Assembly (NCBI GenBank): GCA_020344215.1
Contig: CP070815.1
Location: forward strand, 3,321,296 to 3,385,295
Origin: Gemmatimonadota bacterium
Lineage (GTDB): Bacteria > Gemmatimonadota > Gemmatimonadetes > Palauibacterales > KS3-K002
Length of the DNA stretch: 64,000 nucleotides
Direction of reading: 5' to 3'
Shown here: one piece after another, positions 177-21,625 of the stretch
How the letters are laid out: each line of letters opens with the position of its first letter
Position numbering within the stretch: position 1 is the stretch's first letter
Notes under the pieces: model-generated
What the model was told of the DNA's origin: nothing
What the model saw: only the letters and a program-made list of their open reading frames with translations
The model's database searches: none
Made by a program: the position numbers and the translations under genes

Positions 177-1388
177 CTACTCGTAACGCAACGCGACGAT
201 GGGGTCCATGCGGGCGGCGCGCCGCGCGGGGTAGATCCCGAAGAATAGACCGACCGCCGCCGAGAAGCCGAGCGCCAGTACGACCGCGGCTGGCGCCACT
301 GCAGTGTTCCAGTTGGCAAAGTGCGAGAGCCCGAGCGCCGCAGCGGCACCGGCGAACAATCCGAACAGGCCGCCGAACATACAGAGGGTCAGCGCCTCCG
401 CCAGGAACTGGAAGAGGATGTTGCGCCTTGTCGCACCCATGGCTTTGCGGACGCCGATCTCCCGCGTGCGCTCAGTCACCGAGACGAGCATGATGTTCAT
501 GATCCCGATGCCACCCACCATGAGACTCACGAGGGCGATCCCCGCCAGCAGGATGGAGAAGGTTCGGGTGGTCTCCTCGAAGGTGGACATCAAGTCGGCC
601 CGGTTGCGAATGGAGAAGTCGTTCTCGACGCCCGGTGCCAGTCGGTGCTCCCGCCGAATGATCCGCTCGATCTCCACGACCGCCTGGTTCACCAACGCAG
701 GTGAGATGACCTCCAGCGTCAAGGAGGACAACCGATCGCTCCCGCTGATGCGGTAGCGCGCGGTAGAGAGCGGCATAAGGGCCCGGTCGTCGACGCTGTA
801 AAAGCCCCCCTGTTCGCCCGAGCGTGCTAGGACCCCGATGACCTCGAAGGGTATGGCGCGGATCCGGATAGTCTGTCCGACAAGCTGCTCCGGGTAGTCG
901 GTCAGCCGCGCGGCGAGCTGCGAGCCGACGACCGCCACCGTCCTGCGGGCGGCCATGTCCGATTCGCTGATGAAGCGGCCGTATGCCAACTCGACGCCCT
1001 GCACATGGAGGTACTCGGGGACGGTGCCGATAGTCCTGGCACTGACGTTCCGGTTGAGGAGCTCGATCTGGAGCTCCGCGCTGGACTCGGGAACGACCGC
1101 GGAAAGCAGCTGCGCCTCGGACTTGAGGGCCTCGTAGTCGTCAACCTCGAGGAACGCGCCACCGGCGGCCCCGACGCCGCGATGCCAGCGGTGTCCCGAG
1201 GAGACCGTCAGCTGGTTCGTGCCCAGCGACTCGATCTGGTCCTGCACGGCGCGCTGCGCTCCCTCGCCCATGGCTACCACGGTGATCACGGCACCTACGC
1301 CGATGATGATCCCCAGCATCGTGAGGAATGAGCGCATCTTGTTGGCGCGGAGCGCGGAGAGCGCGACCTTGATTGTCTCCCAGATCAT
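177..1388 (-). CDS. MacB-type ABC transporter permease (MacB periplasmic core domain + FtsX TM bundle), no fused ATPase domain
   Basis: The N-terminus MIWETIKVALSALRANKMRSFLTMLGIIIGVGAV is the classic MacB/FtsX-family opening. It is followed by a large periplasmic segment and a C-terminal FtsX-like region (REIGVRKAMGATRRNI). ATG at 1388 is chosen because the upstream gene stops at 1393. About 403 aa, so the permease only. Confidence 0.85.
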   Translation of the reverse strand: MIWETIKVALSALRANKMRSFLTMLGIIIGVGAVITVVAMGEGAQRAVQDQIESLGTNQLTVSSGHRWHRGVGAAGGAFLEVDDYEALKSEAQLLSAVVPESSAELQIELLNRNVSARTIGTVPEYLHVQGVELAYGRFISESDMAARRTVAVVGSQLAARLTDYPEQLVGQTIRIRAIPFEVIGVLARSGEQGGFYSVDDRALMPLSTARYRISGSDRLSSLTLEVISPALVNQAVVEIERIIRREHRLAPGVENDFSIRNRADLMSTFEETTRTFSILLAGIALVSLMVGGIGIMNIMLVSVTERTREIGVRKAMGATRRNILFQFLAEALTLCMFGGLFGLFAGAAAALGLSHFANWNTAVAPAAVVLALGFSAAVGLFFGIYPARRAARMDPIVALRYE

Positions 1389-1392
1389 GCTT

Positions 1393-2829
1393 CTAGCTCC
1401 CTTGTCTCTGCATGCCGGGGACCCCGCTCCCACGGAACCGCTGGAAACGCTCGAGCAACTCGGCCTGGTCCCGCAGTAAGGCCGCAGTCGGCAGCAGGCA
1501 GACCGAGTCCCCCTCCTGCAGACCGGAGATCACCTCGATGCTCTCCCAGTCCGTCACGCCCAATTGCACGGGCACGGGGAAGATCTCGGCATCCCGCAGC
1601 ACGAACACCACACCGGCGGTCGTGCCGCTGTTCGTGCGTTGCGGGCGCTGCCCCGGACCTGCCCCTGGACCCTGACCCTGCATGAACCTTTGGCGCAGCT
1701 CGTCGACCTGCCGCTGCTCCTCCGGCGTTAGCTGCTCGCCGCTGCGGGCCTTCTGCATGAGTTCTCGAATCTGTTCGCGCGTCAGCTCCTGTGGGCCTTG
1801 GCCGTCGGAGCCTGCGGCCGGGCCAAACCGCGCGGCGGCCTCCTGGGGCGTGTTGGCCGCCAGGAGGTTTCCGAACGACGCGCCGTCGATGCCGAGGGCG
1901 AGCTCGGCGACATCGCGGGCGTCGTCGGTCGGATGGACGGCCTGCGTCGGCACGGCGATGACGTTCTCGGCGCCGGCCACCCGGATGGTCACCTCCGCGC
2001 TCATGCCGGGCTTGAGCAGACCTTCCCGGTTCGCGATGCGGATGATCACCGGGAACATCGTGACATTCTGTGTGACCTGTGCCTGCGGCTCGATCTTGAG
2101 GACCCGTCCCTGGAAAGCCCGGTCGCGGTAGGCCTCCACGGAGATGTCGGCGAGCATGTCGGGCTGCACTCGGCCGATGTCGGTCTCGTCGACCAGGGTG
2201 CGCACCTGCACTTCGCTTAGGTCGGCCATAGTCATGAGGAGCGTGCCGCCGCCCACGACCTGGGTCGCCGAGGAGATCACGTTCCCAACCTCGACGGTCC
2301 TGGCGATGATCGTGCCGGAGATCGGCGCGCGGATCGTCGTTTCCGACATCCGCTCCCTGGCGGTCTCCAGAGCCGCCTGCGAGCGGACGAGCTGCGCCCT
2401 GGCGTTCGCATGCTCCAGCTCGGCCTGCTCGAAGTCCTGATCGCTGATGATCTCCTGCTCGCGCATCCGCTGGGCCCGCTCGAGCTGAGACTCGGCGATC
2501 TTGAGCCGCGCCTGGGCCACTTCGAGGTCCGCTTCGGCCTGGGCCAGCCCCTGGCGCGCGTCCACCCGATCGACCTGAACGAGCAACTGGCCTTGCTCGA
2601 CAAGGTCACCGGTCTCGACCGGCAATTGCAGAATCTCACCGGAGGCTTTGGACTTGATCTCCACCGTCGTCACCGGCTCGAGGATGCCCGCGGCCTCCGC
2701 CGAGATGGAGAGCGTCTGCTGCCGGGCGGCCACCACCTGGAACGGGCGGCCCTCTTCCGCCTCCTCGCAGGCCGCGTTGATCAGCGCGAAGATCACCGCA
2801 CCGACCGTCAAGTACCTTCGTGTCTTCAT
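1393..2829 (-). CDS. Efflux transporter periplasmic adaptor subunit (HlyD/MacA-type membrane fusion protein)
   Basis: N-terminal signal/lipobox-like MKTRRYLTVGAVIFALINAAC. Biotinyl-lipoyl-like segment (SGEILQLPVETGDLVEQGQLLVQVD), a long coiled-coil hairpin, then beta-barrel segments. The position directly upstream of the MacB-type permease fits. Confidence 0.85.
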   Translation of the reverse strand: MKTRRYLTVGAVIFALINAACEEAEEGRPFQVVAARQQTLSISAEAAGILEPVTTVEIKSKASGEILQLPVETGDLVEQGQLLVQVDRVDARQGLAQAEADLEVAQARLKIAESQLERAQRMREQEIISDQDFEQAELEHANARAQLVRSQAALETARERMSETTIRAPISGTIIARTVEVGNVISSATQVVGGGTLLMTMADLSEVQVRTLVDETDIGRVQPDMLADISVEAYRDRAFQGRVLKIEPQAQVTQNVTMFPVIIRIANREGLLKPGMSAEVTIRVAGAENVIAVPTQAVHPTDDARDVAELALGIDGASFGNLLAANTPQEAAARFGPAAGSDGQGPQELTREQIRELMQKARSGEQLTPEEQRQVDELRQRFMQGQGPGAGPGQRPQRTNSGTTAGVVFVLRDAEIFPVPVQLGVTDWESIEVISGLQEGDSVCLLPTAALLRDQAELLERFQRFRGSGVPGMQRQGS

Positions 2830-3269
2830 GATCTATCTTGTTCCTCTCGGTTGCCGTTGCCGTGGCGGCGGTCGACTTCCCTCTCGTGGCGCTCACGCTG
2901 TCTCTGGAGCAGGGCGTCGTAGTTGGCCGCCTGCTCTTCCGTCAGCACAGCGCGGATCTCGGCACGCAGCTGCTCTTGCAGCTCTTCGTACCGTGGGCGC
3001 ACCTCGCGCCAGATGCTGGAGATCTGCTCGCGGTACTCCTCCACGACCACCTGGACCTGCGCCTGCTGTTCCTCGTCGAGCTCGAGTTGGGCGGACAGCC
3101 AATCCAAGTAGCTGCGCCTGCGATCGCGGTCGCCGGAGCGCCCGCGCTGCCCGGACGACGCCGTTCGCTCGCCGACCAGCATGCGGTCCACTGCTGCGCC
3201 GGCGACGCCGCCCAGCAGGAGCACGGCGACAAGGAGGGCGAGCGCCCAGGCCTTAGATTTCCCGTTCAT
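2826..3269 (-). CDS. Periplasmic Spy/CpxP/ZraP-like protein (LTxxQ-motif, heavy-metal-resistance-type family)
   Basis: Signal peptide MNGKSKAWALALLVAVLLLGGVAGAA. Helical, Glu/Gln/Arg-rich body with LTEEQ and LDEEQ motifs. 4-nt overlap with the downstream adaptor gene. Confidence 0.55.
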   Translation of the reverse strand: MNGKSKAWALALLVAVLLLGGVAGAAVDRMLVGERTASSGQRGRSGDRDRRRSYLDWLSAQLELDEEQQAQVQVVVEEYREQISSIWREVRPRYEELQEQLRAEIRAVLTEEQAANYDALLQRQRERHEREVDRRHGNGNREEQDRS

Positions 3270-3275
3270 CGGCCT

Positions 3276-3704
3276 TCACCGCTGTTCAACGTTCTCGGGA
3301 ACATCGGCGCCGTTCCCGTTCCTCTCCAGCAAAGCCGCGGCAGCGACGGCCTCGGCGTCCGGCTCCGTCAACGCCACCAGCATCGCCGGCAGCCCATCGC
3401 TCTCGGCGGCCCCACTCAGCACGTCTTCCAGGACGACCGGCTGAGACAGGTCGCCCTGCCAGGCCTGCCACGGCTGGAGCGCGCCTGCGAGTACAGCCAG
3501 CGCGATGCTCGCGGCAACCAATCCCGGCCGGCCCCACGCCGCCAGAACCTCCCACGACGAGGACGTGCGCCGACGCCTGGCCAGCGGCAGCTCGGCGCTG
3601 GCCAAGATGCGCAGCCGCGCCGCGCGCCGTGCGGCGTCGCTGCGCTGCGGCGTCCTGAGCAGTTCGAGCTCATCGATTCGCCGATCGTCATCGGAGTGAA
3701 CCAT
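3276..3704 (-). CDS. Putative single-pass membrane anti-sigma factor
   Basis: Lies immediately downstream of the ECF sigma gene. One hydrophobic span (GLVAASIALAVLAGAL). No recognisable zinc-binding HxxxCxxC motif, so the call rests on position only. Confidence 0.35.
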   Translation of the reverse strand: MVHSDDDRRIDELELLRTPQRSDAARRAARLRILASAELPLARRRRTSSSWEVLAAWGRPGLVAASIALAVLAGALQPWQAWQGDLSQPVVLEDVLSGAAESDGLPAMLVALTEPDAEAVAAAALLERNGNGADVPENVEQR

Positions 3705-3720
3705 CTTCTTACCTCTCTCC

Positions 3721-4290
3721 TCAGGAGCGGGGCTGGTACTCCTTCAAGAAATCCCGCAGCATCCGCCGCGCCCGCGACAGGTGGGAGCGGCAGGTCCCTT
3801 CCGGGATCTCGAGTACGCGAGCGATCTCGGGGTGCGTGAAGCCCTCCAAATCGTGAAGGATCACCACCGTCTCCAACTCAGCCGGCAGCGAGCTCAGGGC
3901 CTCGGCGAGTCGACCGCGCAGCTCGGCCCGTTCCGTGTCGACCGCCGGGCCGCCCGGCGCCGCCGCCGTCAGCGGCACGTCCTCCATCCGCCTGCGGGCC
4001 AGGTACTTCCGCCGGTTAAGGGCGGCGTTGACCAGCAGGCGGTAGAACCACGCTCCGAACGAGCTGCCCGGCTCCAGGGAATCGATCCGCTCCAGCGCGC
4101 GGATGAAGGCGTCGTGCACGAGGTCCTCCGTATCCTCCACGTGCTGGAGGAAGCCGTAGGCGACAGCGAACGCCTGGTCGGCGTACCGTGTTAGGAGAGC
4201 GCCAAACGCCTCACGGTCGCCGCGCCGGACGCGGGCGACAAGCTCGGGCTCATCGCTGACGGGGGGCAGGGCCGCGCTGTCGACGGCCAT
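3721..4290 (-). CDS. ECF-type RNA polymerase sigma factor (sigma-70 family, regions 2 and 4)
   Basis: 189 aa. Region 2 (EDLVHDAFIRALERIDS...FGAWFYRLLVNAALNRRK) and region 4 HTH (HDLEGFTHPEIARVLEIPEGTCRSHLSRARRML). Confidence 0.85.
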   Translation of the reverse strand: MAVDSAALPPVSDEPELVARVRRGDREAFGALLTRYADQAFAVAYGFLQHVEDTEDLVHDAFIRALERIDSLEPGSSFGAWFYRLLVNAALNRRKYLARRRMEDVPLTAAAPGGPAVDTERAELRGRLAEALSSLPAELETVVILHDLEGFTHPEIARVLEIPEGTCRSHLSRARRMLRDFLKEYQPRS

Positions 4291-4389
4291 CGATCCGCCT
4301 TTCTAACACCTGGTGAACCGGGAGCGTTGGGGCATGCCGCCCCGCCGGACAGGTTGGCAACCCTTGAACATTCGTCTAGCTTGAAGGTT

Positions 4390-4671
4390 ATGGCGATGCA
4401 ACCTGCGGGTCACCCCCAAGCTCGAGAGGATGTCTTGTTTCGGCAGGTGGACGACGAGTGGGTTGTGTTCGATCCCGCCGCGAACGAGCTCCACGTCCTG
4501 AACCTCGCTGCCGCCCTCATCTGGAGTCATTGCACAGGCGAGCACGCGCCTGACGAGATCGCCGGGGCTCTCCAGGAAGCGTACGGCATAGAGTTGGAGC
4601 GGGCGGCGGCCGACGTCCAGGCCACACTCGAGCGTTTCCGGGAGGCCGGGCTCCTGCGTCGCGACGGTTAG
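4390..4671 (+). CDS. PqqD-family protein (RiPP recognition element-like peptide chaperone)
   Basis: VLFRQVDDEWVVFDPAANELHVLNLAAALIWSHCTGEHAPDEIAGALQEAYGIELERAAADVQATLERFREAGLL matches the PqqD-family pattern over its full length. ATG at 4390 is preceded by GAAGG. An upstream TTG at 4327 is an alternative start. Confidence 0.75.
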   Translation: MAMQPAGHPQAREDVLFRQVDDEWVVFDPAANELHVLNLAAALIWSHCTGEHAPDEIAGALQEAYGIELERAAADVQATLERFREAGLLRRDG

Positions 4672-4675
4672 CAGG

Positions 4676-5845
4676 ATGTCCACTCTCGACTACCTCAACT
4701 TCCTCGCCGACACCCCGCGGGTCGATGCGTTCCGGCGTGCCATCGAGACGACGGTGTCACCCGGCCAGCTGGTGCTCGATCTCGGCACGGGTATCGGGAC
4801 CTATGCCCTGTTCGCGGCACGGGCCGGTGCACGGGTCCTCGCCGTAGAATCGGATCCAGTGATCGACATCGCTCGTGGGTTGGCGGCCGACAACGGGCTC
4901 GCCGCCCAGATCACCTTCCTGCACGGCCGTACCGAGCGGCTGGAACCGCCTGAGCCGGCCGACGTCCTCGTGTTCGAGGACTTCGCGCCGCACCTCTATC
5001 ATCCAGAGACAGCCAAGGTACTCCTCGATGTTAGGGACCGCTGGCTGAAGCCGGGCGCCAGCTCGATCCCCCGGGCGATCCGGGTCATGGCAGCGCCGGT
5101 CTGCTGCCCGGAGACCTACGCAGCCGTAACACCTTGGCCGGACGATGAGGTGTACGGCTTGGACATCCAGCGCCTTTCGCACGAGTTGCTCAACCGCCTC
5201 CACTCAGCTTCCTGGAGTCGAGAGGTACTACTGGCCGAACCGGCAGAGGTGGCCCGTGTGGACCCGCTGGCGCTGGACTCCCTCGGCCTCGATATCGAGG
5301 CGTGCTGGCGGGTCACGAAGCCGGGCGAGGTTCACGGTCTGGGGCTGTGGATCGACCTCGACCTGGCCGATGGGGTGCTCTACTCCAACGCGCCGGCGGG
5401 TCGTTCGAGCGGGTGGAGCCAACAGCTCCTGCCGCTGGTCGAGCCGCTGGGAGTGCAGGCCGGGGAAGAGGTGCGGGGGCGGATCGCCACGCTGGGCGCG
5501 TCGCCGCGGGATCCGGAGTGGTGGCGCTGGTGGGTGAGCGCCGGGGCAGGGGAGCGGGAGGGGAACACGTTTCGCGGGATTCCGTTGTCGCTGACCCGGC
5601 TGTGCGAGGCGCGGCTGGACCGCAGGCCCAGGCTCACGCCCCGGGGCCACATCCGGCGCGGGGCGCTGGACTTGATGGACGGGAGACGTACTATCAGAGA
5701 GATCGCCCGTGAGCTACTTGCCCGCTTCCCGGAACTAGGCAGTGAGGCGGAGGGGTATAGACTCATGGCCCGGCAGCTTGACGCGGCGCACGCCGAGCTG
5801 GCCCCGGAGCCGCGCGACACATCGCCTGAGGTGAGGTCGGGATGA
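4676..5845 (+). CDS. Class I SAM-dependent methyltransferase with a PRMT-like fold and a C-terminal PqqD/RRE-like domain
   Basis: Motif I VLDLGTGIGTYALFAARAGARVLAVE. ITFLHGRTERLEPPEPADVLVFE resembles the PRMT post-II region. SGWSQQLLPLVEPLGVQAGEEVRGRI parallels the PRMT THW-loop region (THWKQTVFY...GEEI.G.I). The C-terminal RRGALDLMDGRRTIREIARELLARFPELGSEAEGYRLMARQL resembles a PqqD winged helix. Confidence 0.7.
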   Translation: MSTLDYLNFLADTPRVDAFRRAIETTVSPGQLVLDLGTGIGTYALFAARAGARVLAVESDPVIDIARGLAADNGLAAQITFLHGRTERLEPPEPADVLVFEDFAPHLYHPETAKVLLDVRDRWLKPGASSIPRAIRVMAAPVCCPETYAAVTPWPDDEVYGLDIQRLSHELLNRLHSASWSREVLLAEPAEVARVDPLALDSLGLDIEACWRVTKPGEVHGLGLWIDLDLADGVLYSNAPAGRSSGWSQQLLPLVEPLGVQAGEEVRGRIATLGASPRDPEWWRWWVSAGAGEREGNTFRGIPLSLTRLCEARLDRRPRLTPRGHIRRGALDLMDGRRTIREIARELLARFPELGSEAEGYRLMARQLDAAHAELAPEPRDTSPEVRSG

Positions 5846-6078
5846 TGAGCCGACAGGACCCTACCCGGAGAGAATTCCTGCTCAAGCTTGCGCGGGGAGC
5901 TGCCTACACGGCGCCCCTGGTGGCGACGTTCGCTGTGGCGCCCGACCTGCTGGCCCAGGCGGGCTCGCTGCCGGGGCATCACCACACGAATCCCACGTCG
6001 ACGGCGCCGGCGACCGATCAACCGGGCGCGCCAGCCCCGTCGGAGAAGCACCCCCCGCCGAGCACGAAGAAAGAGTAG
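5842..6078 (+). CDS. 78-aa mini-protein with a twin-arginine (Tat) signal and a His/Pro/Thr/Ser-rich tail (candidate modified-peptide precursor)
   Basis: T-R-R-E-F-L-L-K matches the Tat consensus S/T-R-R-x-F-L-K. It is followed by the h-region GAAYTAPLVATFAVAP and an AQA|G cleavage motif. The start ATG overlaps the methyltransferase stop (ATGA at 5842-5845), with GAGGTGAGG upstream. It is a short ORF, so coding status is not proven. Confidence 0.5.
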   Translation: MMSRQDPTRREFLLKLARGAAYTAPLVATFAVAPDLLAQAGSLPGHHHTNPTSTAPATDQPGAPAPSEKHPPPSTKKE

Positions 6079-6090
6079 CCGGACCGGCTT

Positions 6091-6915
6091 GTGTCACCCG
6101 CGTCGATCCTCCACTACAGGTTCCCCGGGAGCCGCCGGACGCTAGGCGTGCGCCTGGAGGCGCCTGGGCTGCTCCCGCTGCTGGCGAGCTTCTACGGCAA
6201 CTACCGCTGCCCTGACCCAGGCGGTCGAGTCGGGTGCACCATCTCCTTGGAGCGAGAGGACGGGTCGTACCGGCTCGTGGGACCGAGCGGCGCTTGGGAG
6301 GCGGCAGACGAAGGCGAAGCGGTCGTGTACTACGAGTCGGAGCTCACCGGGGCCCTGCTCGAGGACGCGACCGCTTTCGTGCACCTGCACGGGGCCGCGG
6401 TTTGCGACGGCTCGCGCTGCCTGCTGCTCGTCGGGCCTTCCGGCGCAGGCAAGTCGACGCTCACCCTCGGACTCCATCTCGGTGGCATGCGTGCTTTGGC
6501 CGACGATGCCCTGCTCATCGACCCGCTGACCGGTGAGGTCCACCCCTTCGATCGCTCGATACGGGTCCACGAGGTGAGCCTCCGCAGCCTCGAGGTCGAC
6601 CCGCGTAAGGTGAGCGGTGCGCGGCTGTGTGGTCCGTACCTCTGGCTCAGCCCCGCGAAGGTGGGGCGCGATGGGGCCGGCTCGCAGCGGCCGGCGGCGC
6701 TGGTGTTCCTCGAAGCTGGCCAGGCGACGTCACTCGAGCGCTTGAGCGCTGCGGAGGTGCTACGGCAGTTGCTGCTAGCGCGACTGGGCGACGCACCGGA
6801 GCGGGATTTCGAGTGCCTGGCTCGAGTGGCGGCAGAAGTCTCGGGCTATCGTCTGGCTTACAGCGATTTCCGGGAGGCGCTGGATGAACTGGCGCGGCTA
6901 CGGGAGAGTCGCTAG
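6091..6915 (+). CDS. HPr kinase/phosphorylase C-terminal-domain-like P-loop kinase (HprK-related)
   Basis: LHGAAVCDGSRCLLLVGPSGAGKSTLTLGLHLGGMRALADDALLID matches the HprK catalytic core (Walker A GxSGxGKS followed by the ..LvaDD motif). GTG start 12 nt after the mini-protein stop. Confidence 0.7.
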   Translation: MSPASILHYRFPGSRRTLGVRLEAPGLLPLLASFYGNYRCPDPGGRVGCTISLEREDGSYRLVGPSGAWEAADEGEAVVYYESELTGALLEDATAFVHLHGAAVCDGSRCLLLVGPSGAGKSTLTLGLHLGGMRALADDALLIDPLTGEVHPFDRSIRVHEVSLRSLEVDPRKVSGARLCGPYLWLSPAKVGRDGAGSQRPAALVFLEAGQATSLERLSAAEVLRQLLLARLGDAPERDFECLARVAAEVSGYRLAYSDFREALDELARLRESR

Positions 6916-7382
6916 CCGTCTGGGTCCGCTCCGTAGACGTCCGACCAGAGATCCCGATCTTCTTGCACCCGCACCTGGTGGACCCTGACGCCGGCCGGTA
7001 GCCGCGGGCCGACCTTGCGCAGGATGTGGGCGGCCAGGTTCTCGGTGGTCGGCAGGTCGCGTCCCGGGCTGAATTCCTCGACGGCGGAATTGATGTGCCG
7101 GTTGTGAAGGCGGCGCACGACCTCCTCGTCCAAGAGGCGATCGAGCTGCGGAAGGTCCATGACCATGCCGGTCTCGGGATCGATGGGCCCGGCGACCGTC
7201 ACCTCGCAGCGGTAGTTGTGCCCATGCCCCTCGGCAAGGGCAGCCTCGCCGAACCGGCGCCGGTTCTCGTCCGCGCTCCACTCGGGTCGGTAGTAGCGGT
7301 GCGAGGCCGAGAAGTGGACAGCGCGAGTCAGGTAGCCGGTCGTCATGCTCGCCTCAGGGTTGGTGGGTTTCGCGTGGCTCAC
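6912..7382 (-). CDS. queD: 6-carboxy-5,6,7,8-tetrahydropterin synthase / 6-pyruvoyl-tetrahydropterin synthase family
   Basis: FSASHRYYRPEWSADENRRRFGEAALAEGHGHNYRCEVTVAGPIDPETGMVMDL is typical of the PTPS/QueD family. An alternative start lies at 7346 (MTTGYL). Confidence 0.85.
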   Translation of the reverse strand: MSHAKPTNPEASMTTGYLTRAVHFSASHRYYRPEWSADENRRRFGEAALAEGHGHNYRCEVTVAGPIDPETGMVMDLPQLDRLLDEEVVRRLHNRHINSAVEEFSPGRDLPTTENLAAHILRKVGPRLPAGVRVHQVRVQEDRDLWSDVYGADPDG

Positions 7383-7397
7383 CTAACTTAGACGCTG

Positions 7398-8309
7398 ATG
7401 CGGGAGCCAGCTACGGCCCGGAAGGTGCCGAAAGTGGCGCAGTTCCTCGACCTGAGCGACTACGCGCGGCCGCTCGCCGTGTGGGTCGCCCGGCGCCTGC
7501 GCGACACATCGGTTACAGGACCCGACGTCACGGTGGTGTGGGGCATCATCGGGTTCGTGGGTGCCTTCTGCTATGCCGTCGGTGGGTACCAGTACGCGCT
7601 GCTGGGTGCCGGCCTGTTACAGGTCAAGAACATCTTGGACGCCGTCGACGGCTCGCTGGCGCGCCTACAAAGCCGGCCGTCCCGCGTGGGCCGCTTCCTC
7701 GATTCGATCGGTGACGCGGTCATCGCCGCCGCCGTCTACGCGGCCCTCGCCATCGCCGTCGCCCGCGACCGGCCCGTGGTGTATGCGACCCTGCTGGCCG
7801 CCGCGGCGCTGGTGCTCAGCCTCCTCCAGGGCTCCGTCTACAACTACTACCAGGTCCGCTACCGGCAACGGCAGGGCGGTGACCGAACCAGCCTGGTCAA
7901 GGAGAGGTTGACCGAGTACGACGAGATTCACTACGAGGACCGACCTTTGGCCCTCGGCTTGCTGCGTGCGCTGATCCAGGCCTACAACGGGATTTACGGA
8001 TGGCAGGACGTGCTCGTGCAGCGAGTCGACCGCTGGGCCGCCGCGCCGCTGCTGGCGGCGGGTCGTGAGGAGTTCGCGGACGAGTTCCGGGACGACCCGC
8101 GCCTGCTTACGGTTCTCAGCGCTCTGGGTCCGGGGATGCAGATCCTTATCCTCGATCTGTACACGATCGCTGGCGTCCGCCATCTCGGCCTCGCTCTCGA
8201 GCTCTTTCTCTGGACGATCGCGCTCGGCGGTACGCTTTACGCCGCTGCGGTCATACTACGGCTGCGTCGTACCGCGGTGAGGGAATCTCGGATTGCGAGT
8301 GGGGAATAG
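7398..8309 (+). CDS. CDP-alcohol phosphatidyltransferase family protein
   Basis: Signature D-x2-DG-x2-AR...G-x3-D-x3-D is present as LDAVDGSLARLQSRPSRVGRFLDSIGDAVIAAAVY. Multi-pass membrane protein. The last ~10 codons lie inside repeat element A. Confidence 0.8.
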   Translation: MREPATARKVPKVAQFLDLSDYARPLAVWVARRLRDTSVTGPDVTVVWGIIGFVGAFCYAVGGYQYALLGAGLLQVKNILDAVDGSLARLQSRPSRVGRFLDSIGDAVIAAAVYAALAIAVARDRPVVYATLLAAAALVLSLLQGSVYNYYQVRYRQRQGGDRTSLVKERLTEYDEIHYEDRPLALGLLRALIQAYNGIYGWQDVLVQRVDRWAAAPLLAAGREEFADEFRDDPRLLTVLSALGPGMQILILDLYTIAGVRHLGLALELFLWTIALGGTLYAAAVILRLRRTAVRESRIASGE

Positions 8310-8483
8310 AGAGGTGGTTTGGGGATTATCGGATATGGATTCGGGGATTCGGGGAGTTCGGGAAGTACGAAGTCGGTTGCGTTGCCGCCGCTTCTCACCT
8401 TCCCCACCTCCCCGGATCGACATGTGAGAATTCCCAAACCACTTGACCGTTCGCCAATTCGACAATTCCCCGTTCCCCCGGAT
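8278..8483. repeat. GGGGAWTC-rich inverted-repeat intergenic element, copy A
   Basis: Tandem GGATTCGGGGA / GGATTCGGGGAG at 8337-8356 and GAGAATTCCC at 8426-8435. GGGGAAT/ATTCCCC-type motifs occur in opposite orientation in the two halves. The exact 12-mer GGATTCGGGGAG is shared with copy C. Confidence 0.6.
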
Positions 8484-10634
8484 ATGTTAGTGTCCATGGA
8501 TAGACGCCCTGAGACCCTCACTGCGATCTTCGAGCCCAAGGGTGTCGCCGTCGTCGGCGCCAGCCGCCGTACCGACACGATCGGCTACGTGATCCTCGAC
8601 AGCCTGCTTCGCGACGGGTACACCGGCGCCGTCTATCCGGTGAACCCACGCGCCGAGGTCGTTCACTCGATGCGGGCCTACCCTTCGATCGCCGATCTGC
8701 CCGGGCCCGTGGACTTGGCGGTCATCGTCGTGCCCAAGGAGCTGGTTCTTCAGGCGGCGAGCGAGTGTGGCGAGGCCGGGGTGAAGGGACTCGTCGTCAT
8801 ATCGGCCGGGTTCCGCGAGGTAGGTGGTGAAGGTGCTGAGCGGGAACGCGAGCTGCTGGCCGTAGCCCGCCAGTACGGCATGCGGATGGTGGGACCCAAC
8901 TGCATGGGCGTCCTCAACACTGATCCGGCGGTCTCGATGAACGCCACGTTCGCGCCAACGACGCCGCCGACGGGGAACGTCGCCTTCCTGAGCCAGTCGG
9001 GCGCCATGGGCGTGACGATCCTCGACTACGCCCGCGAGTACGGGATCGGCGTTAGCAAGTTCCTCAGCCTGGGTAACAAGGCCGACATATCGGGTAACGA
9101 CGCCCTCGAGTACCTGAAGGACGACGAGCGCACCTCGGTCATCCTCATGTACCTTGAGAGCTTCGGTAACCCGCGCCACTTCACCCGGATCGCCCGCGAG
9201 GTGACCCAGGTGAAGCCTGTGGTCGCCGTGAAGGCCGCACGTACCCGGGCCGGCGCGCGTGCGGGGAGCAGCCACACCGGTGCCATGGCGGGGCTGGACG
9301 TCGCCACCGACGCCCTCTTCGCCCAGTGCGGTGTCATCCGGGTGGACACGGTTGAGGGGCTCTTCGACATGGGGATGGGGTTCGGTAATGCGCCGCTCCC
9401 CAAGGGCAACCGGGTGGCGGTCGTCACGAATGCCGGCGGCCCGGGCATCATAATCGCCGACGCGCTGGAGTCTCAGGGGCTGGAGGTGGCGGAGCTCACG
9501 GAAGAGACGAAGACGCAGCTGCGCGAGCAACTGCCGGAGGAGGCGTCGGTCAACAACCCGGTGGATATGATCGCTAGCGCCGATGCCGACAGCTATCGAT
9601 CGGTGCTGGAGACGGTCTTGGAGGACCCCGGAGTCGACGCGGTCATCGCATCGTTCGTGCCGCCGGTGGGTGTGCACGCGGAGGACGTGGCCCGGGCGAT
9701 CACCGATACGGCGGCCGGTCGTGAGGAGCCGGCCATGGCCGTGCTCATGGGTCGCAAGGGGCTGCGCGAGAGCCGGGCACTGCTCAACGCCGCGAGCGTG
9801 CCCGCCTTTATCTTCCCGGAGTCGGCGGTGCGGGCGCTCGTGGGCATGGACCGCTACCGGCGCTGGCTGGAGCGCCCGGCGGGCCGGGTGCGTGTGTTCG
9901 ATGACGTCGAGAAGGGGCGGGTGGCGGGGATACTGGAGGGCGCGGAGTCCGCAGGCCGCCAGCGCTTGGGCGAGTACGACGCGCTCTCGCTGGTCGAGGC
10001 GTACGGCATACCCGTAGTGCCATCGCGACCGGCGGGGACGGCGGAGGAAGCCGTCAGGGCCGCTGAGCTGGTGGGCTTCCCCGTCGTGCTCAAGGTGATG
10101 GCGCCCGAGATCTCACATAAGTCGGAAGTCGGAGGTGTAATCGTCGGGCTGACCTCGGGGCGTGAGGTGAGGGGCGCCTACTACGAGATGATGGATCGCC
10201 TGGCCGGGAGCGGTGTGGGAAAGGATGCGGTCGAGGGCGTCCTCGTCCAACGCATGGTGAGCGGCGGCCGGGAGGCCATCATCGGGACCGCCTTCGACCC
10301 GAGCTTCGGGCCGCTGATCATGTTCGGGCTCGGCGGCATCTACGTGGAGGCTCTCGGTGACGTCGTCTTCCGGGTGCACCCTGTCAGCGACATCGACGCG
10401 GCAGAAATGATCCGCCAGGTGAAGGGCTACAGGCTGCTGGAGGGCGTACGTGGCGAGAAGGGTGTCGACGTCGACGCACTCCAGGAGGCGATTCAGCGAA
10501 TCAGCCAGCTGGTCGGCGACTTTCCGCAAATCGCCGAGCTCGATGTGAACCCGTTCGTCGCCTTTGAGCCCGGCAAGCGGCCGATAGCCTTGGACGCCAG
10601 GGTGGTGCTGGCCTCGCAGGCCGAATCGGAATGA
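8484..10634 (+). CDS. Acetate--CoA ligase family protein (ADP-forming acyl-CoA synthetase: CoA-binding + succinyl-CoA-ligase-like + ATP-grasp domains)
   Basis: IFEPKGVAVVGASRRTDTIGYVIL (CoA-binding). MVGPNCMGV and AFLSQSGAMG motifs. C-terminal ATP-grasp (PVVLKVMAPEISHKSEVGGV). Start set at ATG 8484; the upstream 55 codons of the track ORF are repeat-element sequence. Confidence 0.85.
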   Translation: MLVSMDRRPETLTAIFEPKGVAVVGASRRTDTIGYVILDSLLRDGYTGAVYPVNPRAEVVHSMRAYPSIADLPGPVDLAVIVVPKELVLQAASECGEAGVKGLVVISAGFREVGGEGAERERELLAVARQYGMRMVGPNCMGVLNTDPAVSMNATFAPTTPPTGNVAFLSQSGAMGVTILDYAREYGIGVSKFLSLGNKADISGNDALEYLKDDERTSVILMYLESFGNPRHFTRIAREVTQVKPVVAVKAARTRAGARAGSSHTGAMAGLDVATDALFAQCGVIRVDTVEGLFDMGMGFGNAPLPKGNRVAVVTNAGGPGIIIADALESQGLEVAELTEETKTQLREQLPEEASVNNPVDMIASADADSYRSVLETVLEDPGVDAVIASFVPPVGVHAEDVARAITDTAAGREEPAMAVLMGRKGLRESRALLNAASVPAFIFPESAVRALVGMDRYRRWLERPAGRVRVFDDVEKGRVAGILEGAESAGRQRLGEYDALSLVEAYGIPVVPSRPAGTAEEAVRAAELVGFPVVLKVMAPEISHKSEVGGVIVGLTSGREVRGAYYEMMDRLAGSGVGKDAVEGVLVQRMVSGGREAIIGTAFDPSFGPLIMFGLGGIYVEALGDVVFRVHPVSDIDAAEMIRQVKGYRLLEGVRGEKGVDVDALQEAIQRISQLVGDFPQIAELDVNPFVAFEPGKRPIALDARVVLASQAESE

Positions 10635-11467
10635 CGTCGCAACCGTTCAACTGCACGAGCTGCGGTGCGCCACTCGTACGCGGGGACGATATCTGTCCCT
10701 TCTGTGGTGAGGTCGTCAGGGCAATCCCCCATTCGCCGCCGCCCCCACCTCCCCGGGTGGTGCCGGACGTGGGGCCGGTCGCGCAGACGATGCCGGGCGT
10801 CCGCCGCTCGGAGGAGGAGATAGCGGCCGCCGCTACCGAGGTGCCGGCGTGGGAGGACCGGAAGACCTTCGGGTTCTGGGCCTCGCTGTGGATCACCTGG
10901 CGTGAGAGCGTCTTCCGGCCCGTGGAATTCTTCCGCAGCCTGCCGCCGCGCGGTGGTATCGGACCCGCTCTCGGCTTCTCCGTGCTGTTTACGGCGCTGG
11001 GCCTGCTCCTGAACATCTACTGGGGCACGCTGCAGAGCGCATTGGCGGGGTCGTGGGAGGAGGGGCCGGTCCTCGTCTTCTTCAGCGGCCTCGTCACGGC
11101 GCTCCTCTGGCTGGCGTTCGCCATACCGCTGTATGTCGGCGCGCTCTTCACCATGGCTGGGGTCCTTCACCTCTGTTTCATGGTCGTGGGCGCCGGCCGG
11201 CGCGGCTTCGAGGCCACCTTCCGGGCCATAGGCTACTCGTCGGGCCCTGCGGCTTTCGCCATCTTCCCCTTCTTTGGAGCCCTCTTGGGCCTCGTCTGGG
11301 GAACGGTCGTGCTGTTCATCGGGATGCGCGAGGTCCAGCGGACCACTAACGGGAAAGCCACGCTGGCCTTCCTGCTGCCGCTCTTTGCCTTCACCGCGTT
11401 CGTCATGCTGCTTAGCATCGTCCTCGCCATGATCCTCGCAGGGACTGACTTCGGCGCCCTCGAGTAG
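10631..11467 (+). CDS. Zinc-ribbon + Yip1-domain multi-pass membrane protein
   Basis: N-terminal CTSCGAPL...CPFCG zinc ribbon, a Pro-rich linker, then a Yip1-like region (FWASLWITWRESVFRPVEFFRSLPPRGGIGPALGFSVL) with about 5 TM segments. 4-nt overlap with the upstream gene. Confidence 0.5.
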   Translation: MTSQPFNCTSCGAPLVRGDDICPFCGEVVRAIPHSPPPPPPRVVPDVGPVAQTMPGVRRSEEEIAAAATEVPAWEDRKTFGFWASLWITWRESVFRPVEFFRSLPPRGGIGPALGFSVLFTALGLLLNIYWGTLQSALAGSWEEGPVLVFFSGLVTALLWLAFAIPLYVGALFTMAGVLHLCFMVVGAGRRGFEATFRAIGYSSGPAAFAIFPFFGALLGLVWGTVVLFIGMREVQRTTNGKATLAFLLPLFAFTAFVMLLSIVLAMILAGTDFGALE

Positions 11468-12805: not shown

Positions 12806-15391
12806 GTGACGGACCTGGACCGATATCAGGAGAAGCGGGACTTCGCCCGCACGCCCGAGCCGGCCGGCTCGGAGCATGGGGCAGGGTCGCCGGAAGCGGC
12901 GCGCCGGTTCGTAGTGCAGAAGCACGCGGCGCGCCGCACGCATTTCGACTTGCGCCTCGAGATCGGCGGAATGCTCGTCAGCTGGGCCGTGCCGAAAGGG
13001 CCCAGCGCCGACTCGGATACGAAGCGGTTGGCCGTCCACGTCGAAGACCACCCGCTCGAGTACGGTGACTTCGAGGGGGTCATCCCGAGGGGCGAGTACG
13101 GCGCCGGTAGCGTGATTATCTGGGACCGGGGCCGCTACGAGCCGCTAGGTGAGACCGAGGACTCGGAGGAGGCGCTGCAGCGGGGTGTTCGGGAGGGGAA
13201 GCTCGACTTCGTTCTCTACGGTGAGCGGATGCGGGGTCGTTGGACTCTGGTGCGCATGAAAGGCCGGGAGACTGAGGACAGCTGGCTCCTGATCAAGAAG
13301 AAAGACGTTCACGCGGAGCCCGGTGACCCTGAAGGCCTCGTGGACCGCTACCGCGATTCCGTGGTGTCGGGCCGAGACCTTGATGATCCCGCACTCGGCG
13401 CGGGGGACCCGGGGCAGGATGCGGCCAGGCCCCCTGTAGATACGCGACCGATGCTGGCCGGGCGCGCCGAGACCCTGCCGGCCGGCGAGGCGTGGTGCTT
13501 CGAGCTGAAACTGGACGGAATAAGAGCCGCAGCTTGGGCCCAGCCCACCGGTCTGCTTCGGGTCTACTCGCGGCGCGGACACCGCCTGGAGTCGGCATTC
13601 CCCGAGATCGGCGACGCCCTCGAGCTGCTCGCCCGCCGCGCGGGCAGCGAGTTCGTCATCGACGGCGAGATCGTCGTGGCCGCCCCCGAGGGCGGCTCCC
13701 GCCTCGAGGACCTTCAGCCCCGTTTCAACCTCCGGGACCCTGGGGAAGTCGCGCGGGGCGCGAGAGCGCAGCCTGCCGAGATGCACGTCTTCGATCTCCT
13801 CTGGCTCGACGGCAAGGACTTGAGGGACCGGCCACTGTCCGAGCGAAAGGACCGGCTGCGCCACATCCTGAGATCGGCAGGTCACAACCTCCACTACGTT
13901 CCCCACGACCTCGCCAGCGGAAACGCCATGAAGACCCGCGCGCGCCGGGAAGGCTGGGAAGGCGTCGTCGCTAAGCGCCTCAAGAGTCGCTACCGCTCCG
14001 GCGAGCGCTCGCCGGACTGGCTCAAGGTGAAAGAGCTCGCCCGCCAGGAGTTCGTGGTGGGCGGCTGGACGGAGCCTCAGGGCAGCCGCCGCGGCTTCGG
14101 CGCGCTGGTGGTGGGCTACCACGACGAGGCCAGCGAGGGCATGCCGCTTCACTGCGCCGGCCGGGTCGGTAGCGGCTTCAGCGAAGCGGATCTACAGGCG
14201 ATAAGGGACAAGCTCAACTCCTTGGCACAGGAAGTCAGCCCCTTCGCCGAGGTACCTGAGGACGCGGAGGACGCCCATTGGGTCCGCCCCGAGCTCGTGG
14301 TCGAGGTGAAGTTCCAGGAATGGACCCGCGATGGCCGGCTGCGCCAGCCGGTCTTCCTGGGCCTACGTAGCGACGTGGACCCGGCCGGGGTGGTCCGGGA
14401 GGGTGGCTCTGCCGACTTGGCAACGGGCCCTCCGGTCGAGCTTACCGCCGAGATCGAGTCGCTGATCCAGACGCTCGAAGTGCTGGAGCGAGAGGGCGCC
14501 GACGCTGAAATCACGGTGGAGGGCCGGCGGCTTAAGGTCACGAACCTCCAGAAGGTCTTTTGGCCTGACATCGGGGCCACCAAGGGGGAGCTCTTGCGCT
14601 ACTACCTATCGGTGGCACCCGCGATACTGCCTGCGGTCGGCGCCCGGCCCCTTACCTTGGAGCGGTACCCCAACGGCATCGGCGGTGAGATGTTCTACCA
14701 GCAGCGGATGCCCGGGCCCGTACCGGAGGGGGTCCGCACCGTGACGCTGGAGCTCGACGGCGAGCCGGCCGAGCGAGTCATCGGCGGTGACGTCTATACG
14801 CTCCTTTATACGACACAGCTCGCGGCGATCTCACAGCACGTCTGGCCGTCCAAGCTCGAGACGCTCGACGACTTGGACTACGCCGTCCTCGATCTCGACC
14901 CTGGTGAGGACGTGCCCTTCTCCGCCGTGTGCGAGGCGGCCCTGGCAACCCACGAGCAGCTCCAGCGCCTCGGACTGCGCGGCTACCTGAAGACCTCCGG
15001 CGCGAGCGGGATGCACATCGTGATCCCGCTTCAGGCCGGCACGGGCTACGAGACCGGCCGCCTGCTGGCGGAGCTCGTCGCTCAGCTCGTCGCCGGGTCA
15101 CGCCCGCGGCTCACGACCGTGCAGAGGGTCGTCTCGAAGCGCGGTGCCCGCGTCTACCTCGACTTCCTCCAGAACCGCCGGGGTGCCACAGTGGCTTCCG
15201 CGTACTCAGTGCGGCCCAGACCGGGAGCGACGGTCTCCGCCCCCTTGAGCTGGATCGAAGTCGAGGGCGAGTTGAAGCCGGGCGACTTCAACCTGCGGTC
15301 GATGCGCGACCGCTTGGCCACCGTCGGCGATCTTTGGGTCGCGTGTCGCACCGATTCGAACGACGTACGCGAGGTTCTTGAGCTTCTGTGA
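12806..15391 (+). CDS. ligD: ATP-dependent DNA ligase D (phosphoesterase - ligase - polymerase/primase domains)
   Basis: PE domain (FVVQKHAARRTHFDLRLE...WAVPKGPS), ligase adenylation motif FELKLDGIRA, and a C-terminal LigD polymerase domain (VTNLQKVFWP...YLKTSGASGMHIVIPL). GTG start with AAGAAGG upstream. Confidence 0.9.
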   Translation: MTDLDRYQEKRDFARTPEPAGSEHGAGSPEAARRFVVQKHAARRTHFDLRLEIGGMLVSWAVPKGPSADSDTKRLAVHVEDHPLEYGDFEGVIPRGEYGAGSVIIWDRGRYEPLGETEDSEEALQRGVREGKLDFVLYGERMRGRWTLVRMKGRETEDSWLLIKKKDVHAEPGDPEGLVDRYRDSVVSGRDLDDPALGAGDPGQDAARPPVDTRPMLAGRAETLPAGEAWCFELKLDGIRAAAWAQPTGLLRVYSRRGHRLESAFPEIGDALELLARRAGSEFVIDGEIVVAAPEGGSRLEDLQPRFNLRDPGEVARGARAQPAEMHVFDLLWLDGKDLRDRPLSERKDRLRHILRSAGHNLHYVPHDLASGNAMKTRARREGWEGVVAKRLKSRYRSGERSPDWLKVKELARQEFVVGGWTEPQGSRRGFGALVVGYHDEASEGMPLHCAGRVGSGFSEADLQAIRDKLNSLAQEVSPFAEVPEDAEDAHWVRPELVVEVKFQEWTRDGRLRQPVFLGLRSDVDPAGVVREGGSADLATGPPVELTAEIESLIQTLEVLEREGADAEITVEGRRLKVTNLQKVFWPDIGATKGELLRYYLSVAPAILPAVGARPLTLERYPNGIGGEMFYQQRMPGPVPEGVRTVTLELDGEPAERVIGGDVYTLLYTTQLAAISQHVWPSKLETLDDLDYAVLDLDPGEDVPFSAVCEAALATHEQLQRLGLRGYLKTSGASGMHIVIPLQAGTGYETGRLLAELVAQLVAGSRPRLTTVQRVVSKRGARVYLDFLQNRRGATVASAYSVRPRPGATVSAPLSWIEVEGELKPGDFNLRSMRDRLATVGDLWVACRTDSNDVREVLELL

Positions 15392-21037: not shown

Positions 21038-21409
21038 CTAGCGGTCGCGCAGCTCGATGGGCTCGACCGGATACTCCACGTGGAAGTAGTGGCTGGAGTT
21101 CTCGTGGTTGATATGGATGTGGACCACGGTGACCCCATCGGTCACCTCACGATTGAACATCGTGACCTCTATGCCCTTGGAGAGGCTGACAGGGCCCAGG
21201 TCGCTGATGCCCTGCGGGTACTCCATGTGGTCGGCGAAATAGGATTCGCACATCGTGATGAGATGTCGCAGGTCCTCGACGGCGGCGGCGTCGTAGGCCC
21301 GCTCTCTGGCCCGACTGTACTTTGGCAGGGCGATCATCGCGAGCAGTCCGATGATCAGAATGACAACGAGAAGCTCTATTAACGTGAAGCCGCGCCGGTT
21401 CACAGACAT
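21038..21409 (-). CDS. Prepilin-type N-terminal cleavage/methylation domain protein (type IV pilin / pseudopilin)
   Basis: RRGFTLIELLVVILIIGLLAMIALP is the class III signal peptide with the conserved G|FTLIE. Confidence 0.75.
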   Translation of the reverse strand: MSVNRRGFTLIELLVVILIIGLLAMIALPKYSRARERAYDAAAVEDLRHLITMCESYFADHMEYPQGISDLGPVSLSKGIEVTMFNREVTDGVTVVHIHINHENSSHYFHVEYPVEPIELRDR

Positions 21410-21625
21410 ACCAGCAACCCCGCTACCTTTCCCTCCCCGAAGCCGCTGCATCCCGTTGCGGTCGGCGTCCGGCCGCAGCGATGCCAGGATGGGAGTCAGG
21501 CACCCAGCTACACGTAACTACCCAGTTGACGGATAGTTAGGGAAAGAACGCGGGCGGGAGGCGGCGGGATGCAGCGCCGCCGACGCGCTGGTTAGGACTT
21601 ACGGCAAATTTACCGGCCGTTCTCG

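Follow-up and report, generated by a model that had tools for sequence, protein, structure and literature searches.

A putative Tat-type precursor peptide encoded with a PqqD-family protein, a PRMT-fold methyltransferase, and an HprK-like kinase in Gemmatimonadota

Results

A small gene between methyltransferase and kinase genes

The sequence examined was a 64-kb window of Gemmatimonadota DNA (positions 1-64000), and the subject of this study is an open reading frame (ORF) of 78 amino acids (aa) at positions 5842-6078 of its plus strand. A first-pass annotation, made from the sequence alone, had described the ORF as a peptide with a twin-arginine translocation (Tat) motif; its translation was matched exactly by ours. 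Its residue counts for positions 41-78 (nine Pro, five Thr, four Ser, and four His, with no Arg or Cys) were reproduced, and arginine was found only at positions 4, 9, 10, and 18. The described overlap of the start codon with the stop codon of the 389-aa methyltransferase gene was seen as ATGA at 5842-5845, as was the Shine-Dalgarno-like site upstream. That account of the locus had, however, overlooked a key gene, which encodes a PqqD-family RiPP recognition element (RRE; RiPP, ribosomally synthesized peptide that is post-translationally modified). The main genes and features are the following.

4390..4671, plus strand: PqqD-family RRE (discrete RRE, or peptide chaperone); Pfam PqqD, 1.3e-15; TIGR04353, 42.9 bits against a cutoff of 35 bits
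4676..5845, plus strand: S-adenosylmethionine (SAM)-dependent methyltransferase of the protein arginine methyltransferase (PRMT) fold with a C-terminal three-helix extension; Pfam Methyltransf_25 and PRMT_C, similarity to PRMT6
~5639-5800, plus strand: predicted three-helix extension of the methyltransferase, aa 322-375; predicted local distance difference test score (pLDDT) ~80-90 in the AlphaFold2 model
5828..5836, plus strand: Shine-Dalgarno-like GAGGTGAGG, read from the sequence; the peptide ATG follows after 5 nt
5842..6078, plus strand: 78-aa precursor-like peptide, with leader 1-40 and core 41-78; translation, homologues, GC content at third codon positions, dN/dS
6091..6915, plus strand: HprK-related kinase, P-loop G115-S122 at ~6433-6456; best family TIGR04352 (HprK_rel_A)

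PqqD-type proteins are RREs that bind the leaders of precursor peptides, and the gene at 4390-4671 therefore marks the locus as a RiPP-like cassette. The start of this gene is uncertain, as its ORF opens with TTG at 4327; the ATG at 4390 agrees with the orthologues and is likely the true start. An antisense ORF of 126 aa (4303-4683, minus strand), an apparent divergent neighbor of the methyltransferase gene, matched no family, and it is the plus frame at 4327-4671 that encodes the PqqD/RRE. This antisense ORF and two others, at 5380-6051 on the minus strand and 5888-6145 on the plus strand, all overlap conserved genes and were rejected as spurious.

The cassette recurs in unrelated neighborhoods

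Hidden Markov models (HMMs) made from the cassette proteins found about 20 distinct loci of a cassette comprising PqqD, the PRMT-fold methyltransferase, the peptide, and the HprK-like kinase. The gene order is PqqD-methyltransferase-peptide-kinase in the clade of the window and kinase-PqqD-methyltransferase-peptide in other Gemmatimonadales. The surroundings of the cassette are unrelated between loci: rpoC-rpsL in L005, a resistance-nodulation-division pump in L012, dnaE in L013, and yet another context in L014. When the window was compared with L005, the most distant cassette, identity was 68% for the leader of the peptide, versus 39% for PqqD, 40% for the methyltransferase, and 32% for the kinase. 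Exceptions to the linkage were L030, from Longimicrobiales, with no cassette within 7 kb of the peptide, contigs cut at their ends, and a subgroup with Phe in the leader that is described below. Extra genes encode an NTP_transf_5 nucleotidyltransferase in L014 and a Peptidase_S51 protein in one other locus. No other conserved small ORF was found in the cassette.

All 15 of the loci taken from species-representative genomes belong to Gemmatimonadota (Gemmatimonadales, Longimicrobiales, and Ca. Kutchimonas), which is also the phylum of every named record in the peptide family. By this distribution of sequences, the cassette is specific to Gemmatimonadota.

The representative search also returned P0204, a protein of 446 aa in which a cassette-type methyltransferase is fused in frame to a peptide of the family via a junk-like stretch of ~70 aa. 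The fusion is probably a frameshift or assembly artefact. P0204 places a methyltransferase and a peptide next to each other in one further lineage.

The peptide ORF is a gene under purifying selection

The ORF at 5842-6078 is a genuine gene under purifying selection. Homologues numbered 40 (76-113 aa) in a sequence search and 129 in a profile search; an exhaustive HMMER scan of 1.84 billion representatives gave 132 peptide clusters at 50% identity, nearly all of 40-130 aa. The GC content of the ORF by codon position is 0.68/0.58/0.81, and the flanking genes are alike in this respect. The window peptide was compared with 11 orthologues, for which 10 pairs were computable. In the leader, the proportion of synonymous differences (pS) was 0.42-0.75, near saturation, versus 0.02-0.27 for nonsynonymous differences (pN), and dN/dS was 0.01-0.16 in nine of the 10 computable pairs and 0.48 in the most distant, L028. 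In the block of the C-terminal motif, pN was 0-0.10 in nine of 10 comparisons and 0.22 for L007, with pS of 0.3-0.8. The conservation check that the first-pass annotation had proposed thus returned a strongly conserved leader with low dN/dS and a variable core. The peptide itself was recognized by no model in four profile libraries.

A scan for promoters and terminators around the operon found nothing that exceeded shuffled controls. A palindrome, AGCCGGACCGGCT, lies at 6077-6089 between the peptide stop and the GTG start of the kinase gene and was not conserved in orthologous loci. Hairpins of unrelated sequence were predicted at the palindrome site in the orthologous loci, with no control comparison made.

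The leader combines Tat-like features with a candidate RRE-binding motif

The 40-residue leader contains three features of interest, one of which overlaps its boundary with the core.

5863..5886, plus strand: twin-arginine motif T8-R-R-E-F-L-L-K15, its R, R, F, and L conserved across 225 sequences at the frequencies given below
5905..5922, plus strand: Y22-T-A-P25-L-V27, candidate RRE-binding motif inside the hydrophobic (h-) region; conserved in the family, motif from PMC13381572
5953..5967, plus strand: A38-Q-A40 / G41-S42, predicted site of signal peptidase I, with the candidate phospho-acceptor Ser42 after it; column frequencies below

Residue frequencies were anchored on the conserved leader Tyr in 225 family sequences. 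Upstream of this Tyr, the conserved columns were R at -13 (93%) and -12 (96%), F at -10 (91%), L at -9 (88%), A at -5 (84%), and [RK] at -4 (81%). Tyr itself was present in 86% (Phe in 10%) and was followed by A at +2 (90%), P at +3 (99%), [VI] at +5 (92%), and [TS] at +7 (96%), and further on, around the start of the core, by [AG] at +16 (79%), Q at +17 (59%), and S at +20 (46%).

The segment T8-R-R-E-F-L-L-K15 satisfies the consensus S/T-R-R-x-F-L-K and the TatP pre-filter expression RR.[FGAVML][LITMVF] (PMC6085387). Six-frame translation of the window gives 430 ORFs of at least 50 aa; a loose Tat rule admits eight of these, and the strict consensus is found in ORF 5842-6078 alone. The twin-arginine pair is RR in 101 of the 105 cluster representatives that make up the non-redundant peptide set, RK in three, and KR in one. 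Residues G19 to P34 form an uncharged stretch of 16 residues with a Kyte-Doolittle mean of 1.22, which meets the TATFIND rule of at least 13 residues (PMC8047123). In the family as a whole, 201 of 225 peptides have an uncharged run of at least 13 residues, and the median length is 16. The Tat consensus and the h-region that had been described at first pass were thus recovered, the former exactly. The A-x-A site described along with them is present in the window as A38-Q-A40, but it is not conserved among close relatives. A small-x-small sequence, [AGS]x[AGS], occurs at the expected place of cleavage in 152 of 225 peptides.

Conservation of the h-region far exceeds the needs of a signal peptide, which would be explained if the PqqD/RRE reads the leader. 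Its core, Y-x-A-P-[VL]-[VI], fits the leader motif [Y/W]xxPx[L/V/I/A/F/Y] defined for the RREs of lasso peptide, pyrroloquinoline quinone (PQQ), and linear polyphosphorylated peptide (LPP) systems (PMC13381572), and Trp takes the place of the Tyr in three of the 105 cluster representatives. On the side of the protein, the best PDB matches of the window PqqD were the lasso RRE TfuB1 (6jx3, E 2.8e-4), followed by LppB (9x8z) and TbiB1. Residues N38, Y65, and D75 of PqqD align without gaps with N33, Y60, and D70 of LppB, in a pairwise match that is weak (E 0.14), and the Asn and the Asp are invariant in seven cassette PqqDs. In LppB, N33 lies at the Pro kink of the leader and its replacement by Ala nearly abolishes binding, while D70 hydrogen-bonds the Tyr hydroxyl and D70A weakens binding (PMC13381572).

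From these features the leader looks like both a Tat export signal and a chaperone docking site. No description of a leader that combines a Tat signal with chaperone docking was found in the literature, and searches for work tying Tat to RiPP leaders, or PRMTs to RiPPs, gave nothing relevant. With somewhat better than even confidence, we read ORF 5842-6078 as the precursor peptide of an RRE-dependent modification cassette, exported by Tat after maturation.

Similar leaders were seen elsewhere. In proteins P0229, P0235, and P0218 (159-219 aa), a domain of 120-180 aa is preceded by a leader of similar form, RR...A-A-[YF]-x-A-P-V-I-x-[ST]-F, so the RR...[YF]-x-A-P leader type may not be restricted to short peptides. 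No informative Pfam domain was found in these three proteins, and hence they could not be used as independent evidence of export.

Leader variation in the Phe-type subgroup

In a subgroup of the family the leader Tyr is replaced by Phe (leader AAFVPP), and the peptide has the tail PPPWSRPPPTQTGR (PPPTQTGR).

L015, 3616-3939 and 6448-6702, minus strand: Phe-type subgroup
L032, 8786-10330: Phe-type subgroup

In L015, the one Phe-type locus whose RRE could be read, Phe replaces the leader Tyr, and Lys replaces the Tyr-binding Asp that every other RRE has. L032 has a PqqD remnant, a 271-aa methyltransferase, no kinase, and an intact RR-F-L-L-K leader, which suggests erosion of the cassette with retention of an exported peptide. 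As anecdotal evidence, the Phe-type loci fit a division of the leader in which Tyr-Pro would serve the RRE and RR would serve another role, most simply Tat.

The core peptide carries a His cluster, a conserved C-terminal motif, and a candidate phospho-acceptor

The core following the leader has two further features.

5974..5985, plus strand: His cluster G45-H-H-H48; H46 at least 90% conserved among close homologues
6037..6063, plus strand: C-terminal motif P66-S-E-K-H-P-P-P-S74; family form P-[WS]-x-x-x-P-P-P-[GS]

Across the family the core is variable, rich in Pro, Gly, Ser, and Ala, and 13% hydrophobic; the window core has a single aliphatic residue. It had been supposed that a 38-aa disordered cargo would be odd for Tat. 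This premise is overstated, given that Tat exports unstructured hydrophilic segments of up to ~100-120 aa unless a hydrophobic stretch is present (PMC6708511). P66 is invariant in alignments A1, A2, and A3. Other subfamilies have S-S-x-H-K or Met-rich runs in place of the His cluster.

Of 225 peptides, 187 (83%) have a Ser between Y+18 and Y+23, compared with an expected share of ~47%, an estimate from the 10% Ser content of the core. In the window this residue is Ser42, at Y+20 and two residues past A-Q-A. The kinase of the LPP system places one to four phosphates on Ser3 of the core, 18 residues after the leader Tyr (PMC13381572). Of the three roles suggested at first pass, that of the tail as the kinase substrate is the best supported, as the kinase is an HprK homologue whose P-loop and ADD motif are intact and Ser42 would, by analogy, be placed like LPP Ser3.

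Another of these roles was that of a periplasmic metal-binding peptide linked to the adjacent Spy/ZraP-like operon. The His- or Met-rich composition of the cores agrees with its first part, and a metal-binding or envelope-related role of the product is possible; the link to the operon is absent from the four other cassette contexts. Taken further, the same composition could mean that the gene encodes no more than a small periplasmic protein of an ordinary kind, such as a metal binder, that is exported by Tat, and that the operon enzymes act on another substrate. The divergent operon near the window cassette, with its extracytoplasmic function (ECF) sigma factor and Metal_resist, membrane fusion, and MacB proteins, would suit such a protein, although it is a feature of the window clade. 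We regard this as highly improbable in view of the strict linkage of the peptide to PqqD, the methyltransferase, and the kinase over at least four unrelated neighborhoods and two gene orders, the translational coupling of methyltransferase and peptide, and the match of the RRE-type leader motif to residues kept in PqqD. It would also leave the enzymes with no other conserved small ORF in the cassette to act upon.

The modifying enzymes and the question of twin-arginine methylation

The first-pass annotation had proposed a PRMT-fold neighbor, and the methyltransferase proved to be one. It scored 35.1 bits with Pfam PRMT_C (cutoff 27 bits), and its best phmmer match was PRMT6 (7e-23 over aa 9-296), followed by PRMT2, PRMT3, PRMT8, PRMT1, and CARM1. 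The AlphaFold2 model had a pLDDT of 85.4 and matched PRMT6 (4c05) in Foldseek with an E value of 8e-27 and a template modeling (TM) score of 0.79. In the double-E loop, SEWMGYGLLHESM of PRMT6 corresponds to FEDFAPHLYHPET of the window, with the first Glu (E101) conserved; the second acidic residue has moved by one position in the window and, in the orthologues, varies or is missing. The THW loop is replaced by SGW, TGW, or xPW in the cassette clade, with the Trp kept. The distant bacterial relatives P0277-P0285 retain SEW...E and THW. By its sequence and modeled structure the enzyme is a genuine PRMT homologue with the PRMT fold. The double-E and THW loops have diverged, and we therefore treat it as a PRMT-fold enzyme and assign to it neither arginine specificity nor a substrate residue.

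The C-terminal three-helix extension occurs in the window clade only; the methyltransferases of other cassettes are 331-336 aa long and lack it. In hhalign the extension weakly resembles PqqD in its helical half (probability 62%, E 7.7e-5), and it may be a second leader-binding module.

A profile made from ten cassette kinases retrieved HPr kinase/phosphatases first (1ko7, 1.9e-8), over a region spanning the conserved His, GxSGxGKS, and ADD. These three elements are invariant in the cassette kinases, and judging from them the kinase keeps the HprK catalytic core. For ScmC, a weak Pfam tag on homologous kinases, the literature gave unrelated acronyms only.

That the methyltransferase is a true PRMT homologue in both sequence and fold bears on a further suggestion of the first-pass annotation, by which the enzyme would methylate the twin arginines (or R18) and so switch Tat export on or off; in our extension of it, the enzyme would be guided by PqqD. 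The distribution of arginine is in keeping with such a target: R9 and R10 are the sole near-invariant arginines in the family, the core lacks Arg in 51 of 225 peptides, the RR pair is the only Arg in 10, and R18-G19 forms an RG dipeptide. Yet the canonical second Glu and the His of THW are lost in the cassette clade, suggesting a changed substrate, and 39% of the family have Lys at position 18. Tat targeting is usually blocked even when Arg is replaced by Lys, and no bacterial arginine demethylase is known, so methylation of the motif would be a one-way block. We consider methylation of the Tat motif quite improbable.

Weighing the assignment

Several observations weigh against the peptide being a modified, Tat-exported precursor. 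Pfam TAT_signal (PF10518) and NCBIfam TIGR01409 gave zero matches to the window peptide at E values up to 10; these models are very short and low-scoring, so their silence counts only weakly. A-Q-A varies in close homologues, where AQP (in many), AQG, and AQT are found, and Pro at -1 disfavors signal peptidase I. The column of Ser42 is only 46% Ser, and most of the wider family has Trp where the C-terminal motif of the window has Ser67, such that the assignment of Ser42 as a phosphorylation site is by analogy only. The kinase reached 67.1 bits with TIGR04352, far below the cutoff of 200 bits, though with an E value of 1.3e-18. The co-variation of Tyr/Asp to Phe/Lys was seen in a single locus, and a metagenome scan seeded with the Phe type added one short locus.

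The missing Tat-model matches, the variable A-x-A of close homologues, and an h-region that is over-conserved for a signal peptide would all be expected if the leader were not an export signal. RR-x-F-L-K and Y-x-x-P would then be enzyme handles only, the peptide would stay in the cytoplasm or use an unlinked transporter, and the likeness to Tat would be ancestral or coincidental; the precursor leaders of LPP, lasso peptides, and PQQ are likewise not signal peptides. We hold this to be unlikely. The full Tat consensus, an uncharged run of 13-20 residues, and small-x-small recur together in more than 100 clusters, and RR varies only to RK or KR. The leader with its RR is retained where the cassette has eroded and the RRE is degenerate (L032) and where no cassette or RRE is nearby (L030), and the cassette, unlike that of LPP, has neither an exporter nor a peptidase of its own.

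The AQP of many close homologues, with its Pro unfavorable to signal peptidase I, and the presence of small-x-small at the expected place in only 152 of 225 peptides could instead point to an uncleaved signal anchor, in which case the peptide would remain tethered in the inner membrane and its His/Pro-rich tail would face the periplasm. With only ~16 residues, two conserved prolines, and a mean hydropathy of ~1.0-1.2, the uncharged stretch would make a weak transmembrane helix, and [AG]-Q-[AGS] is dominant at the cleavage region in the wider family. A permanent anchor therefore seems very doubtful to us, and we retain the interpretation of a leader that would be removed upon export.

Genes around the cassette

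Other annotated genes of the window are as follows.

6912-7382, minus strand: PTPS/QueD-like protein, syntenic in the window clade
7398-8309: CDP-alcohol phosphatidyltransferase, downstream of the cassette, syntenic in the window clade
8319-10634: ADP-forming acyl-CoA ligase, downstream of the cassette, syntenic in the window clade
10631-11467: Yip1 protein, downstream of the cassette, syntenic in the window clade
177-4290, minus strand: divergent operon, syntenic only within the window clade and not counted as part of the cassette; it comprises the next five entries
3721-4290, minus strand: ECF sigma factor
3276-3704, minus strand: 142-aa protein with no family match, possibly an anti-sigma factor
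2826-3269, minus strand: Metal_resist/LTXXQ-like protein, below cutoffs
1393-2829, minus strand: HlyD/CusB-type membrane fusion protein
177-1433, minus strand: MacB_PCD/FtsX permease
12806-15391, plus strand: full three-domain LigD (phosphoesterase, ligase, and primase-polymerase)
21038-21451, minus strand: N_methyl prepilin-type protein of 137 aa, type IV pilin or pseudopilin; Pfam N_methyl, 1.2e-8
29952-31004, plus strand: 350-aa ORF starting MNRRSFLL...AALVFAGC, with a twin-arginine pair and a lipobox-like Cys, no Pfam family

The PTPS, CDP-alcohol phosphatidyltransferase, acyl-CoA ligase, and Yip1 genes were considered as cassette members and rejected, being absent from the four other cassette contexts. 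The PTPS and ligase genes also flank the Phe-type peptide in L015. MacB-type permeases are found, together with PadR, near the cassette in L012 and L032 as well; MacAB pumps are able to expel periplasmic peptides. In related loci Ku adjoins LigD, and the cassette has dnaA and dnaN ~8 kb upstream of it, which places the window near the chromosomal origin. The 350-aa ORF may encode a Tat-dependent lipoprotein. No tRNA genes and no Rfam families at the gathering threshold were found in the 64 kb.

Discussion

Relation to known systems

The closest described counterpart of the cassette is the LPP system of Bacillota (Popov et al., Nat Commun 2026, PMC13381572). The two have in common a discrete PqqD-type RRE with conserved Asn and Asp, an HprK-like kinase, and a linear precursor with a YxxPxV leader. 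They would further share a Ser acceptor early in the core, ~18-20 residues after the Tyr, and removal of the leader by signal-peptidase-I-type chemistry, both of which are predicted here. Of the LPP leader consensus YxxPxVLxHQxIxFETxxS, the Gemmatimonadota peptide matches the YxxPxV part only. LPP clusters encode a SipW-like peptidase, an MsbA-like exporter, and an NTP-transferase, whereas in the window and related loci no conserved transporter or peptidase was found in the cassette, which has instead a Tat-consensus n-region and a PRMT-fold methyltransferase. The host phylum differs, as does the core with its conserved C-terminal motif P-[WS]xxxPPP-[GS]. Membership in the LPP class was rejected on the absence of the SipW-like peptidase and the MsbA-like exporter from the window and related loci. 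The LPP paper mentions neither a Tat signal nor a methyltransferase nor Gemmatimonadota (PMC13381572).

A second comparison is with the HPr-rel-A system that NCBIfam describes by TIGR04353 and TIGR04352. The window PqqD is above the cutoff of the former, the latter is the best family of the kinase, and the related locus L014 carries the NTP_transf_5 partner. The window differs in having no nucleotidyltransferase and a kinase below the cutoff. In the literature library that was searched, we found no publication on the HPr-rel-A system or on TIGR04352/TIGR04353. Phosphorylated lasso peptides of the paeninodin type have the same kind of leader motif, a B1 RRE, and an HprK-type kinase; membership in the lasso peptides was rejected, as the Asn-synthetase-like cyclase C and the transglutaminase-like B2 peptidase were absent from all loci examined, and the product should therefore be linear.

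The Tat proofreading chaperones TorD, DmsD, and NapD are cytoplasmic proteins that hold a twin-arginine signal peptide until maturation is complete. A PqqD holding the leader would act alike, but the winged-helix RRE fold is unrelated to that of TorD or NapD. Small Tat proteins of ~70 aa exist, as in TIGR02811 ("formate dehydrogenase region TAT target"). This family was the sole weak match of the window peptide (E 0.05), in the signal region only and far below the cutoff. The methyltransferase resembles the type I PRMTs (PRMT6, PRMT1, and CARM1) in its Rossmann and beta-barrel architecture, with 26% identity to PRMT6, and differs in being bacterial and linked to a cassette, in its C-terminal three-helix extension, and in the changed second Glu and THW His.

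Taken together and judged by sequence, the cassette is best classed as a variant of the RRE/HprK-kinase peptide-maturation systems that is set apart by its Tat-type leader and its PRMT-fold enzyme.

A possible route of maturation and export

In the pathway we propose, PqqD would capture the leader in the cytoplasm via Y22, P25, and V27, possibly shielding the signal peptide in the manner of Tat proofreading chaperones. It would then present the junction of leader and core, such that the kinase could phosphorylate Ser42, possibly several times as LppK does, and the methyltransferase would add methyl groups to the peptide at a site that we leave unassigned. The leader, acting next as a Tat signal, would allow the modified core, which is small, hydrophilic, and disordered, to be exported post-translationally, and general signal peptidase I would cut near A38-Q-A40. 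Tat would suit such a peptide because ATP- and SAM-dependent maturation comes first and because short, hydrophilic, unstructured cargo is tolerated. With housekeeping Tat and signal peptidase I at hand, a dedicated peptidase and exporter would be unnecessary. The product would be a modified periplasmic or secreted peptide of ~38 residues, His/Pro-rich and ending in P-S-E-K-H-P-P-P-S.

Implications

If methylation of the twin arginines, which we doubt, did occur, it would be the first case of a Tat motif modified by an enzyme, and the enzyme would be the first functional bacterial PRMT in peptide maturation. Irrespective of the residue it modifies, the cassette places a bacterial PRMT homologue in a tractable four-gene system for substrate identification. 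Peptides of this kind would escape precursor-mining tools in which ORFs with signal peptides are discarded.

If the peptide is indeed a Tat-exported precursor, it would supply the missing substrate for the cassette of PqqD "peptide chaperone" and HprK-related kinase flagged by NCBIfam, and it would bring phosphorylated linear RiPPs, newly described in Bacillota, into a Gram-negative phylum. Its 40-residue leader would have a dual function, as a handle for the tailoring enzymes and as a Tat signal, with the housekeeping Tat system and signal peptidase I replacing dedicated machinery. The need to export only after ATP- and SAM-dependent maturation in the cytoplasm would provide a natural rationale for the use of Tat, and the RRE fold would gain a role as a proofreading chaperone of signal peptides.

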